The position numbers and the translations under genes are program-made. This document shows, piece after piece, positions 36,760 through 61,399 of a stretch of 64,000 bases of DNA. Origin of the DNA: Methanobacteriota archaeon. Lineage in GTDB: Archaea; Thermoplasmatota; Thermoplasmata; SG8-5; JAGLSY01. Location of the stretch: contig JAEHCO010000001.1 in NCBI GenBank assembly GCA_020697715.1, positions 352,001-416,000 on the forward strand, written 5' to 3'. The first letter of the stretch is position 1; the number at the start of each line of letters is the position of its first letter. The notes below the pieces were generated by a model that was given only the letters and a program-made list of their open reading frames with translations, was not told where the DNA came from and did not search any database.

Positions 36760-36872
36760 AAAAAATAAGAGCCATTCGGGAGTTCAAATCTCCCAGTCTT
36801 GAATTAATAAAAAATAAGAGCCATTCGGGAGTTCAAATCTCCCAGTCTTGAATTAATAAAAAATAAGAGCCA
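36760..36872. repeat. 49-bp tandem repeat (two full units plus tRNA junction) at tRNA-Thr 3' end
   Basis: AAAAAATAAGAGCCATTCGGGAGTTCAAATCTCCCAGTCTTGAATTAAT twice; GCC at 36771, 36820, 36869. Confidence 0.93.
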
Positions 36873-36977
36873 CTGGGGAGATTTGAACTCCCGACCTACT
36901 GATTACGAATCAGTCGCTATATAGCGCTTGAATGCATCATGAATCGGCGCATTCAAATACCGCTAAGCCACAGTGGC
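36868..36977 (-). tRNA. tRNA-Thr(CGT) with 38-nt D-loop BHB intron (36921-36958)
   Basis: GCCACTG/CAGTGGC acceptor, ACTGA-TTCGTAA-TCAGT, GGGAG-TTCAAAT-CTCCC; BHB helix AGCG/CGCT with GTA and ATA bulges. Confidence 0.93.
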
Positions 36978-39520: not shown

Positions 39521-39618
39521 AACCTCGAGGGATAAACATTGGGAAAGTATTTTAATGTCCTCTTATTGTGGGGATTCATAATATGGCATATCTCGGTATG
39601 CTGTGATTGAAAAAGTCC

Positions 39619-39776
39619 ATATGGGCCCGTAGCAGACAGGCCCGTAAATACCAAAACAATAATATTTGGGGCTGTAATTGACCTACGTGCCCGCAAATAA
39701 GAAAACAATACAATATGGGCCCGTAGCCGACCTACGTGCCCGCAAATAAGAAAACAATACAATATGGGCCCGTAGC
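39619..39776 (+). repeat. 49-bp tandem repeat of tRNA-Lys leader plus 5' end (two near-exact and degenerate upstream units)
   Basis: GACCTACGTGCCCGCAAATAAGAAAACAATACAATATGGGCCCGTAGC at 39680 and 39729; degenerate unit 39635-39679; ATATGGGCCCGTAGC at 39619. Confidence 0.9.
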
Positions 39777-39839
39777 TTAGCTAGGTAGAGCGCCCGGCTC
39801 TTAACCGGGTGGTCTTGGGTTCGAATCCCATCGGGCTCG
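39766..39839 (+). tRNA. tRNA-Lys(CTT), intronless
   Basis: GGGCCCG/CGGGCTC acceptor, CCCGG-CTCTTAA-CCGGG, GGGTTCGAATCCC. Confidence 0.95.
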
Positions 39840-39890
39840 TATTTATTTTTTATATTTGTTAAGAGCCCTAATGCCAGTGACGTGGATTCT

Positions 39891-40001
39891 GGTGGGATTC
39901 GAATGAAGTTCGACGAGTGATTTCAATGCATACCATTGAAATCACGAGCAAGACTGGGATGCTGGAAGTAGACCAGTCGATGATCCCATCGGGCTCGTAT
40001 T
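39891..40001 (+). repeat. tRNA-anchored structured element, copy 1 (after tRNA-Lys)
   Basis: Antisense T-arm GGTGGGATTCGAA, 76-nt core 39907-39982, 19-bp direct repeat of tRNA 3' end 39983-40001 (=39825-39843). Confidence 0.85.
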
Positions 40002-61149: not shown

Positions 61150-61249
61150 GGGCGCGTGGCCTAGCCAGGATATGGCGACAGCCTCCTACTCCGACTGCAA
61201 AGTCAGAGGAGCAAGCTGTAAGTCAAGGGTTCGAATCCCTTCGCGCTCG
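61150..61249 (+). tRNA. tRNA-Arg(CCT) with 25-nt canonical 37/38 intron (61189-61213)
   Basis: GGGCGCG/CGCGCTC acceptor, ACAGC-CTCCTA|A-GCTGT, AAGGG-TTCGAAT-CCCTT; BHB helix CTCC/GGAG. Confidence 0.93.
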
Positions 61250-61273
61250 CTTATCTTTTATTTTGTATTTGGA

Positions 61274-61399
61274 GAGTGAGAAGGATGAGAACGTAGTTCG
61301 ACGAGTGATTTCTGAGTGTGGCGAAGAAATAACGAGCAAAACCTGGATGCCGAAGGTAGACAGGTTGATGATCCCTTCGCGCTCGCTTATCTTTTATTT
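61274..61399 (+). repeat. tRNA-anchored structured element, copy 2 (after tRNA-Arg)
   Basis: Degenerate antisense of tRNA end GAGTGAGAAGGAT, 76-nt core 61295-61370, 29-bp direct repeat 61371-61399 (=61235-61263). Confidence 0.85.

Follow-up and report, generated by a model that had tools for sequence, protein, structure and literature searches.

Background

At the tyrT locus of Escherichia coli, units known as tyrT repeats or RtT RNA (Rfam RF00391) repeat the 3' end of the tRNA. The archaeal units described here resemble them in layout: a tRNA is followed by repeated units, which stand in tandem and end in a copy of the tRNA 3' end, and an antisense stretch of T-stem and acceptor forms a closing stem with this tail copy. 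They differ from RtT in having an unrelated inner sequence, in accompanying many tRNAs per genome, and in possessing a conserved core, copies of which are found outside tRNA contexts as well.

IS200/IS605 elements carry subterminal hairpins on one active strand and need a Y1 transposase acting in trans; the two ends of such an element usually resemble each other. PATEs are described as non-autonomous IS200/IS605 derivatives (PMC6006769). Both insert 3' of a short target without duplicating it; the archaeal core matches them in this and in having hairpins on one strand, and would likewise depend on Y1 in trans. Its two hairpins (P3 and P4) are, however, unlike in sequence, its host-specific inverted arm and duplicated tail lie outside known IS200/IS605 chemistry, and TnpB is absent here; a comparison of the core ends with the ends of the resident Y1 element gave no match. 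The REP/REPIN repeats of bacteria, which three accounts (PMC3116915, PMC5581495, PMC3733652) associate with a single-copy Y1 transposase, are likewise short, intergenic and palindromic, with structure on one strand, vertical persistence and a conserved tetranucleotide beside the hairpin (GTAG or CGTC in REP; CGAG, on both sides of the stem, in the archaeal family). In contrast to REP/REPIN-RAYT systems, the Y1 protein here scores as IS200/IS605 and falls below the RAYT cut-off, the cores do not flank the Y1 gene, and the closing stems consist of host tRNA sequence.

Three further phenomena need to be considered. t-elements are reported to serve as RNA processing signals in plant mitochondria and Haloferax; like minihelices and some of the archaeal units, they mimic an acceptor/T-stem outside a tRNA and leave its 3' end free. 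The archaeal mimic differs in copying the tail of the neighbouring tRNA and in having a large insert in place of the T-loop. In Thermococcaceae, partial tRNA genes adjoin intact ones (PMC9897764); here, by comparison, no integrated element lies between the copies. In Methanopyrus kandleri, a conserved palindrome lies some 10 bp downstream of roughly half of the tRNA genes (PMC5217627); it differs from the present units in being a simple 5+5 motif that has neither tail copy nor core. Our search, whose scope lay mostly outside subscription journals, found no account of archaeal tRNA-tail hairpin units.

Two copies of the element in the window

The window, that is, the whole stretch of DNA analysed, has a length of 64,000 nt. 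The sequence-only reading had singled out two segments, 39907-39982 and 61295-61370, as copies of one hairpin element beside different tRNA genes. When realigned, the two match without gaps over 76 nt, with 56 of 76 positions identical overall; identity outside a 13-nt loop segment is 53/63, and eight of the ten remaining differences make up four compensatory pairs, all in agreement with that reading. Three of these pairs are placed in the outer P4 stem and one in the P4 inner stem. The features of the two loci, and of a third locus with related units, are as follows.

36770..36867, minus strand: two tandem 49-nt 'empty' units 3' of tRNA-Thr; same layout in genome G003
36868..36977, minus strand: tRNA-Thr(CGT), extra sequence inserted in its D-loop region; boundaries set by eye
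39600..39764, plus strand: tandem units upstream of tRNA-Lys; also kept in G003
39765..39840, plus strand: host tRNA-Lys(CTT), intact (ARAGORN; Rfam tRNA 63.2 bits)
39841..39863, plus strand: T-rich tRNA-Lys trailer, with a T-run and a TATA-like AT-rich stretch
39864..39869, plus strand: outer arm GAGCCC, complement of GGGCTC (acceptor 3' strand, distal copy); paired in the MFE fold
39870-39890, plus strand: 21-nt bulge after the outer arm
39891..39898, plus strand: P1 5' strand GGTGGGAT, imperfect antisense of the T-stem 3' strand plus two T-loop bases
39899..39913, plus strand: P2 hairpin TCGAAT-GAA-GTTCGA, host T-loop sequence plus inverted copy
39914..39982, plus strand: family-A core at tRNA-Lys
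39983..40001, plus strand: tRNA-Lys tail copy, direct, 19 bp, with 4 nt of trailer; T-run after it
61150..61249, plus strand: host tRNA of copy 2, intron-bearing (Rfam tRNA 49.5 bits)
61272..61301, plus strand: decayed antisense arm GAGAGTGAGAAGGAT and P2 hairpin GAGAAC-GTA-GTTCGA of copy 2
61302..61370, plus strand: family-A core of copy 2
61371..61399, plus strand: direct 29-bp copy of the tRNA 3' end, including 14 nt of trailer

The antisense stretch GGTGGGATTCGAA claimed for the tRNA-Lys unit was confirmed, as was the direct 19-bp tail copy (39825-39843 = 39983-40001), which comprises the T-loop AT, the T-stem 3' strand, the acceptor 3' strand, the discriminator and the 4 nt of trailer. 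The P1 5' strand pairs with 39983-39990, and the extra GAGCCC at 39864-39869 complements the acceptor 3' strand. P2 matches the T-loop type of the host in other copies too. The core itself consists, in order, of CGAG, stem-loop P3, CGAGC, AAG, stem-loop P4 (with an internal GA/GA loop) and CGATG. It interrupts the distal partial tRNA copy cleanly, between positions 58 and 59 of the T-loop. At the second tRNA the tail copy is longer (29 bp, 61235-61263 = 61371-61399); the G003 orthologue of this tRNA is intron-less and has the anticodon CCT (Arg).

Two loci in the window carry units of other kinds. Each unit upstream of tRNA-Lys, of which 39717-39743 is the clearest, holds the tRNA promoter region and the first 11 nt of the tRNA (GGGCCCGTAGC) and continues with CGAC and an imperfect complement, CTACGTGCCCGC; the head repeat lies at -49. 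These 5' units have the mirror layout of the 3' units. Both tandem units at tRNA-Thr lack a core; each combines trailer sequence with a T-arm hairpin whose loop is inverted (GGGAG-ATTTGAA-CTCCC) and with an acceptor 3' strand that has diverged. Rfam matched this tRNA-Thr(CGT) in its 3' part only (36876-36925).

Copies of the tRNA 3' end downstream of tRNA genes

Host tRNAs were listed from Rfam tRNA matches, as ARAGORN alone gave too few (22); one intron-bearing tRNA-Arg(CCG) missed by this list was recovered by the covariance model. In the Thermoplasmata lineage concerned, about a third of tRNA genes are trailed by a partial copy of their own 3' end on the same strand: 12/38, 13/40, 13/40 and 13/42 tRNA genes in four genomes, and 0/37 in a closed control genome. 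Chance is excluded as the origin of the tail copies, since about 9e-4 would be expected per tRNA (12-mer with at most one mismatch, within 400 nt) and the control genome has none. The copies begin within the 3' part of the T-loop and reach the discriminator, in many cases taking in part of the trailer. Often an inverted copy of these bases stands ahead of them, with which they form a hairpin. Several unrelated inner sequences share this layout. The tRNA's own T-run terminator sits between the tRNA and the unit. Several contigs stop directly 3' of tRNAs.

Duplicated tRNA 3' ends are the classical signature of integrase activity, and in Thermococcaceae integrating elements are reported to generate tRNA gene fragments (PMC9897764). 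The sequence-only reading had taken the duplicates to mark integration sites. That the units are att-site scars of plasmids or viruses that integrated and excised at tRNA 3' ends is nevertheless very improbable. Tail copies lie only 37-298 nt from the tRNA in 51/51 units, all on the same strand, and a search for kb-scale islands bounded by them found none. Tail 14-mers recur locally only, with the exception of one distant case and of tails common to two tRNA genes, and the source genome has a single Phage_integrase-type recombinase. Further, the duplicated block begins within the T-loop exactly at the core insertion point, and one and the same core sits at many tRNAs. Spacing, local recurrence and the single integrase led us to reject this candidate.

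A second possibility, improbable in our estimation, is that local DNA rearrangement at tRNA genes under heavy transcription gave rise to the units as by-products, which were kept as spare terminators. Here, partial tandem and fold-back duplications would have been seeded by the palindromic T-loop and T-arm, and the core would have spread by gene conversion only. Several features of the units are in keeping with this: mirror-image upstream units at some tRNAs, with promoter and 5'-end copies and inverted arms; tail copies in tandem, including arrays of identical units; a duplicated trailer that ranges from 0 to 64 nt; 'empty' units; unrelated inner sequences within one layout; and arms that resemble decaying perfect inverted copies. 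The core is harder to reconcile with it, as both its sequence and its fold have been conserved between families of the class.

Spread and structure of the family-A core

Family A exceeds the two copies and one core sequence to which the sequence-only reading was limited, and several inner sequences exist. Eight covariance-model matches were obtained in the source genome. Across the order, 16/22 genomes have family A, whose range extends to additional families of the class. Our first covariance model, R1, was too narrow (matches in 2/41 genomes); R2 is the model that detects the family across the class. Regular-expression scans for CGAG-hairpin-CGAG returned mainly coding-sequence noise. The core is a module of about 50-85 nt (CGAG, stem-loop, CGAGC, 2-3 nt, stem-loop) and stands beside at least ten different tRNAs with matching flanks.

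In an alignment of 18 copies, 83.9% of cells pair, vs 63.4% in shuffles, and both sides have changed in 31 of 37 pairs. Covariation is far above shuffled and slid controls. Within P2-P4, G.U/U.G outnumber A.C/C.A by 19 to 3, and the G.A/A.G pairs at the base of P3 are conserved in 17 and 16 of the 18 copies; both the fold and the G.A pairs are a property of one strand only. The following points of the description are supported: the element is structured on the sense strand, covaries, exists in multiple copies associated with tRNA 3' ends, and is closed by host-specific stems.

No Rfam family covers the element: tRNA alone reached its gathering score, matches at E<=10 were at chance level apart from a weak one to RtT (copy 2, 16.3 bits, E=1.5, gathering score 45, by cmscan; copy 1 gave none), and an Rfam scan of the non-tRNA variants gave no match. 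Three structured RNAs were considered and rejected by inspection. An archaeal BHB tRNA intron, defined by two 3-nt bulges around a 4-bp helix that takes in the intron start and the start of exon 2, does not fit, as CGAG at the core start is unable to pair with AUCC of the next flank and the host is a partial tRNA. A box C/D or K-turn guide RNA would have C (RUGAUGA) and D (CUGA) boxes that position the guide according to the N+5 rule; neither a D nor a D' box follows the antisense arm, and Rfam C/D matches were at chance level. The CGAUGAG..CGAG or CGAA combination lacks the C3/U4 and stem I required of a hammerhead, and no Rfam ribozyme matched.

Strong, sense-strand-specific covariation is also what would be expected if the units were genes, or co-transcribed modules, for small tRNA-like RNAs of t-element or minihelix type, an explanation that we regard as the main rival to the one favoured below and, taken by itself, as rather unlikely. 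The arm and tail would mimic acceptor and T-stem and putatively recruit RNase P, tRNase Z and CCA-adding enzyme, and the core, in the place of the T-loop, would be a putative protein-binding domain with tandem G.A pairs and K-loop-like motifs; the P3 tip CUGA..GAAG of several copies is K-loop-like by inspection. Such RNAs might act as processing signals, terminators or insulators, decoys, or regulators of their own tRNA. In support, the units lie on the tRNA strand and end with a duplicated T-run or trailer, their layout parallels the RtT RNA of E. coli tyrT, and t-elements are documented in plant mitochondria and were reportedly used in Haloferax. Some units have an acceptor/T-stem mimic of about 12 bp: that of tRNA-Lys includes a bulge, and that of tRNA-Arg(TCT) of G003 is a full 12-14 bp minihelix closing stem with a free discriminator. 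On the other hand, many arms are just 5 bp or decayed, the arm-to-tail duplex is better than at least 99% of shuffles (p<=0.01) in only 17/51 units, and the terminator of the tRNA intervenes before the unit.

Insertion of the core in hairpin loops

The family-A core is a separate module inserted cleanly in tail hairpins. It follows TTCGA or TTCA of T-loop sequence, and no target duplication is present, since the rejoined flanks regenerate the host T-loop. All 18 aligned copies have a left bracket of GTTCGA, GGTTCA or GATTCA and a right bracket of (A)ATYCC followed by the host tail, so that the breakpoints are TTCGA|core|AT or TTCA|core|AAT in 18/18. The element had been described as grafted onto tRNA 3' ends. 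The tie to 3' ends stands; 'grafted' is better replaced by insertion in a hairpin loop, at T-loop position 57/58 or 58/59. In the common form, the core lies between P2 and P1 and so breaks a palindrome in its right arm instead of occupying a simple loop.

Many copies follow tRNAs; a GC-rich hairpin repeat of unrelated sequence likewise has cores in its loops, away from tRNA genes. One such hairpin is empty in G015 and G013 (CATGCCCCGCC-tgtga-GGGCGGGG), and its counterpart in G020 is filled (CATGCCCCATC-tgtg[52-nt core]a-GGGCGGGG), giving the breakpoint TGTG|core|A. The core occupies the second hairpin of the GC-rich repeat in G014, G015 and G013. Two cores, at tRNA-Cys of G000 and tRNA-Ser(CGA) of G003, are reversed relative to the tRNA, with all anchors aligning. 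Reversed cores, and the same core inside unrelated hairpin loops, speak against genes for tRNA-like RNAs. They also count against local rearrangement: gene conversion alone fails to account for one core that occurs in either orientation, within unrelated hairpins, and beside at least ten different tRNAs, each time between flanks that match.

Turnover and retention between genomes

The comparison of filled and empty loci bears on mobility, and presence or absence was found to differ between congeneric genomes, consistent with a mobile element. Between G000 and G003, two species of one genus, the loci at tRNA-Ala(CGC) and tRNA-Arg(TCG) are filled in G003 only, and the units at tRNA-Cys and tRNA-Gly(GCC) were seen in G000 only. 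G003 has a truncated copy at tRNA-Gly(TCC) and, in one unit, a tail copy that has diverged. Decay of this kind, and the variation of units between congeneric species, weigh against tRNA-like RNA genes. The P4 stem differs between orthologous copies and is common to paralogues within G003.

The tail copy of tRNA-Glu tracks the acceptor change of its tRNA in each species, and copies at the same tRNA occur in different families, with compensatory changes: tRNA-Trp (f2, f3), tRNA-Ser(GCT) (f2, f4) and tRNA-Met (f5, f18). Both observations are in line with tRNA-like RNAs; long retention at the same tRNA would fit a function and a persistent replicator equally.

Candidate enzymes

The sequence-only reading had proposed a trans-acting enzyme and named HUH proteins among the candidates. 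An IS200-type Y1 transposase was indeed found; its link to the cores is circumstantial. It is present, mostly in single copy, in 16/22 genomes of the order and in all seven high-quality ones (7/7), and matches NF033573 (IS200/IS605) at 119.5 bits and NF047646 (REP_Tyr_transpos) at 28.2 bits, below the cut-off of 80. Y1 and family A each occur in 16/22 genomes and together in 14, counts that are confounded by kinship and completeness. Among genomes without a Y1 match, G022 carries units at 13/42 tRNA genes, one of them with a family-A core, and G031 also has copies; G079 and G126 carry copies and presumably lack Y1, as they are absent among the matching genomes. These copy-bearing genomes are 92-99% complete. 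In 20 Y1 loci (67 kb, searched with R2 and filters off), one significant family-A match was obtained, about 1.2 kb off, and no core-like ends were found at Y1 genes. A different GC-rich hairpin adjoins Y1 and resembles the 17-copy GC-hairpin repeat of G000.

TnpB (PF07282) had no matches in G000 and exceeded the cut-off in 1/22 genomes of the order, and a TnpB omega-RNA was rejected on this basis. A reverse transcriptase had likewise been suggested as a mover; RVT_1 gave 0 matches, and the arms are without a CCA complement by inspection, so a retroelement was rejected too.

A model for the core and its tail hairpins

We tentatively favour, with somewhat less than even confidence, a REP/PATE-like explanation, in which the core is an insertion module that is not autonomous, resides in hairpins of tRNA tails and is possibly mobilised by the single-copy IS200-type transposase. 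Insertion without duplication, empty and filled hairpins, both orientations and a single structured strand would all fit such a module, as would the turnover between congeneric species, the exchange of P4 stems, the concerted change at tRNA-Glu, the presence of Y1 and the lack of kb-scale islands. Against it, the two stem-loops of the core are dissimilar, unlike the usual IS200/IS605 ends, the link to Y1 is weak, and copies occur in genomes listed with no Y1. IS200/IS605 chemistry also leaves the host-specific inverted arm, the duplicated tail and its trailer unaccounted for, and the common form has the core in a palindrome arm.

Under this REP/PATE-like model, the core would be an insertion module of single-stranded DNA type that enters exposed hairpin loops, with the Y1 (HUH) transposase, mostly single-copy in the order, as the likeliest candidate mover. 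Insertion in a genuine T-loop would destroy an essential tRNA, so that survivors would be expected only in duplicated tails. The tail may be kept identical to the tRNA by exchange between these short direct repeats, through gene conversion and unequal crossing-over; the same processes could give rise to tandem arrays and to stem modules swapped between copies. Read-through transcription of the units from the tRNA is possible, and the DNA-element reading does not need it.

A more far-reaching proposal, which we regard as rather unlikely, is that an old, class-wide and previously undescribed replicator or RNA family of Thermoplasmata exploits the T-arm of tRNA genes: its structured, single-strand-specific module targets the T-loop, survives only in duplicated tails, and so drives tail-hairpin units, tandem arrays and mirror 5' units at a third of tRNA genes. 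The minihelix RNAs may in this case have been recruited as decoys or for tRNA processing or termination.

If the insertion-module reading holds, the family would be an archaeal counterpart of the bacterial REP/REPIN or PATE systems, with tRNA-tail copies as safe havens, and would have reshaped the flanks of about a third of tRNA genes in much of an uncultured class. For transposon biology, the targeting of hairpin loops would show the use of a universally conserved, essential sequence. For tRNA biology, the units may be a source of tRNA-like minihelix RNAs and of additional terminators, and may evolve in concert with the tRNA. Annotation is affected as well, as the units yield partial tRNA genes and assembly breaks; the R2 covariance model locates the family class-wide.

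Two copies of the core in the window and its fold

The window holds two copies of the family-A core, a conserved folded insert of about 50-85 nt, each behind a tRNA gene:

39765-39840, tRNA-Lys(CTT), host of the first copy
61150-61249, plus strand, intron-bearing tRNA, host of the second copy; its orthologue in the congeneric genome G003 reads as tRNA-Arg(CCT)

The ungapped 76-nt alignment of 39907-39982 with 61295-61370 described in the sequence-only reading was recovered, as were its counts: 53 of 63 positions outside the 13-nt loop are identical, and eight of the ten differences form four compensatory pairs. Each core is followed by a repeat of the tail of its host, 19 bp at tRNA-Lys (39825-39843 = 39983-40001), as also described there, and 29 bp at the second tRNA (61235-61263 = 61371-61399). 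Minimum free energy folding gives four helices: P1, which closes the structure and is specific to the host; P2, a short hairpin built from T-loop sequence; P3, a stem with CGAG on either side; and P4, a hairpin containing an internal GA/GA loop.

In the window, an intron of about 25 nt interrupts the tRNA-Arg(CCT) gene, whereas its orthologue at G003:C22:282609-282683 has none, so that an intron was gained or lost inside one genus. The tRNA-Thr(CGT) gene (36868-36977, minus strand) appears, with boundaries set by eye, to have an insertion of about 38 nt in its D-loop region; Rfam matched its 3' part alone and ARAGORN missed it.

A covariance-model scan, suggested in the sequence-only reading, found further copies. 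With BLAST and a model built from four copies (R1), we identified eight in the genome from which the window comes (G000; 2.12 Mb, 34 contigs), each directly behind a different tRNA; G003 has six matches with R1 and eight with R2, a wider model from 18 copies. We found that, among 18 copies from three genomes aligned to the model, a set of related sequences whose fitting to the model biases the alignment towards the structure, standard pairs occupy 83.9% of cells, compared with 63.4 ± 1.2% in 500 shuffles, none of which attains the observed figure, and 26-45% in slid controls, and both sides have changed in 31 of 37 pairs. Given the effect size and the slid controls, there is little doubt that the covariation claimed earlier is real, despite fitting and kinship. 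Two positions at the foot of P3 retain G.A/A.G in 17 and 16 of the 18 copies, and within P2-P4 G.U/U.G outnumber A.C/C.A by 19 to 3. The conserved fold is therefore a property of a single strand, whether in RNA or in single-stranded DNA. As for the earlier caveat that the element might prove to be a known Rfam family, a search matched none, its sole echo being a chance-level RtT hit.

Distribution across the class

R2 detects the core in 16 of the 22 genomes of the order, including all seven that are at least 90% complete. The proposed tie to tRNAs holds for 13 of 22 new R2 matches inspected, the stronger ones, found 22-41 nt downstream of a tRNA whose tail they repeat at their end; it fails for the other nine, which do not follow a tRNA with a matching tail. 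When the filters were tightened, matches were found in 10 of the 121 high-quality class genomes, three further families included. Outside the order, four of seven inspected matches follow a tRNA with a matching tail, and G022, a genome of another family, has one more copy behind tRNA-Met. Copies at the same tRNA recur between families of the class (tRNA-Trp in f2 and f3, tRNA-Ser(GCT) in f2 and f4, tRNA-Met in f5 and f18), and their compensatory changes track phylogeny.

tRNA-tail units

Cores behind tRNAs sit in tail units, that is, downstream partial copies of a tRNA 3' end, which also occur without a core. We searched for the last 12 nt of every Rfam tRNA hit, with at most one mismatch, within 400 nt downstream.

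Tail copies found behind tRNA genes
G000, own genome: 12 of 38 tRNAs, one doubtful; one extra tRNA found by the model alone
G003, same genus: 13 of 40 tRNAs
G005, same order, different family: 13 of 40 examined tRNAs, of 41 hits
G022, same class but different family, not among the 22 genomes of the order: 13 of 42 tRNAs, six of the 42 with less than 100 nt downstream, where the contig ends
G033, closed genome, another family: 0 of 37 tRNAs

The contig ends near G022 tRNAs suggest that tandem tail units break short-read assemblies. The within-tRNA part of the duplicated block is 12-22 nt long and begins in the 3' part of the T-loop, the duplicated trailer after it measures 0-64 nt, and the copies lie 37-298 nt downstream of the tRNA. 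Upstream of many units is an inverted tail copy, and for 17 of the 51 units the duplex between spacer and tail is better than at least 99% of 200 shuffles; in other units the inverted arm is just about 5 bp. The inner sequences comprise several unrelated families, and whole units are tandemly repeated in some cases. Units with no core are present in the window:

36770-36867, minus strand, two 'empty' tandem units behind tRNA-Thr

Each consists of a T-arm hairpin with inverted loop and acceptor strand. Mirror-image units, containing promoter, approximately the first 11 nt of the tRNA and an inverted arm, are found upstream of tRNA-Lys and three other tRNAs.

Since tail 14-mers recur only locally, no large integrated element between the copies is involved, which argues against the earlier view of the duplicates as integration-site marks; integrase scars fit the units less well and are a highly improbable origin for them. 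The orientation of units, their terminators, the full minihelices in some of them and their long retention at orthologous tRNAs favour another reading, an RNA that would resemble a tRNA minihelix and carry an insert for protein binding.

The units share their layout with the RtT repeats of E. coli tyrT, although the test for that family failed here, and t-elements are among their closest analogues. A literature search of incomplete coverage turned up no account of archaeal tRNA-tail hairpin units that enclose a conserved insert; closest to them come tRNA fragments that derive from integrating elements (PMC9897764) and, downstream of Methanopyrus tRNA genes, a simple palindrome (PMC5217627).

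Other elements are also found behind tRNA genes. A small inverted repeat, AGATGCG..N..CGCATCT, is inserted in G003 trailers L040, L044, L047 and L057 and inside the G003 Ser unit, and is missing from the orthologous G000 loci. Behind Leu units is an element of about 250-300 nt (G000:C22:278925.., C28:52421..; G003:C11:13690-13990), which starts GGATTCGA(A/C)AGTAGTAA(A/G)CGG and ends with the tRNA-Leu acceptor 3' strand again. G033, with no tail copies, has a conserved hairpin, CTAAGCCCCTTTCTTAGAAAGAAAGGTGCTT, directly 3' of many tRNA genes (about a dozen trailers); it may terminate transcription or direct processing in that lineage specifically.

Insertion and turnover of the core

The T-loop sequence of the partial tRNA copy borders the core in all 18 aligned copies, with TTCGA or TTCA on one side and (A)AT on the other, and excising the core restores the T-loop, with no duplication. 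Commonly it interrupts the right arm of the palindrome, between P2 and P1. The non-tRNA matches have the same core (CGAG, stem, CGAGC, stem) within a GC-rich hairpin that belongs to an unrelated repeat, dispersed between ordinary genes; this type of hairpin is empty in genomes G015 and G013 (CATGCCCCGCC-tgtga-GGGCGGGG) and filled in G020 (CATGCCCCATC-tgtg[core]a-GGGCGGGG). At tRNA-Cys (G000) and tRNA-Ser(CGA) (G003) the core runs opposite to the tRNA, and all anchors still align. Between G000 and G003, copies at orthologous tRNAs vary in presence, with one of them truncated, and a tail copy has diverged. A swapped P4 stem is common to paralogues within a genome, and the tRNA-Glu tail copy matches the acceptor change of its tRNA in each species. 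Taken together, clean insertion, other contexts, reversal, turnover and concerted change point to an insertion module acting at the DNA level, with recombination between short repeats on top.

Reversed cores, copies away from tRNAs and decaying arms count against the minihelix RNA, the main rival, which we consider rather unlikely; units as a pure by-product of rearrangement fit less well and are improbable. We tentatively favour a non-autonomous REP/PATE-like module that would enter exposed hairpin loops and be kept in duplicated tRNA tails, insertion into a genuine T-loop being presumably lethal, with an IS200-type Y1 enzyme as its probable mover; we infer that recombination between short repeats also acts on the units. 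This mobile module leaves without account the origin of the host-specific inverted arm, the tail duplication and the interruption of the right arm of the palindrome. It is compatible with the minihelix RNA: REP elements are mobile and also used by the host. REP/REPIN-RAYT systems and IS200/IS605 PATEs are among the closest analogues of the family-A element.

A candidate enzyme and a GC-hairpin repeat

Among the enzymes that the sequence-only reading had named as possible movers, an HUH gene is present, G000 having one Y1 HUH transposase; G000 has no RVT_1-type reverse transcriptase and one tyrosine recombinase. TnpB is absent from G000 and exceeds its cut-off in one of the 22 genomes of the order. 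The Y1 gene occurs in 16 of these 22, including all seven of high quality, mostly as a single copy, and its score class is that of IS200/IS605 transposases, not bacterial RAYTs. At 7 of 20 loci its neighbour is a long-arm tRNA (8 tRNA genes). The conserved hairpin CAAGCCTCGTCTGTAAGGRCGGGGTAT beside it is similar to the beginning of a two-hairpin repeat with 17 copies in G000, and in family f4 the core resides in repeats of this type. A firm link between core and Y1 is opposed by the missing flanking cores (one significant match in 20 loci), by the occurrence of Y1 in only 42 of 121 class genomes, and by core carriers G022 and G031, with no Y1 match, and G079 and G126, absent among the Y1-matching genomes listed.

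The Y1 loci (G000:C1:16359-16709(-), L246-L264) have one constant neighbourhood, a membrane protein gene and a long-arm tRNA, but G000 and G003 have the Y1 gene in opposite orientations. On both flanks of Y1 in family f4 is a repeat of about 200 nt, followed by a partial second copy of the Y1 C-terminal part. The 17-copy repeat of G000, itself about 200 nt long (e.g. C11:270734(+), C11:483342(-), C28:236610(-), C30:3089(+)), consists of two GC-rich hairpins (CATGCCCCGTC..GGGCGGGG) separated by a conserved stretch (TACTATATTCGATGAG.ATTCGAGTGACAG), and its tail (GTCAAACTCTCTAAAACCCTAAACAC) is conserved too; the loop of the first hairpin ranges from about 11 nt (CGAGTGACGCA) up to inserts of about 70 nt that also start CGAG. 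Upstream of Y1 genes and some tRNAs, about 10 nt before a TTATATA-like box, is the motif (A/G)TACTTTC(G/A)C(C/T)CACC, which occurs at seven places in G000 (e.g. C11:394445 = window 42445) and may form part of an extended promoter or bind a regulator.
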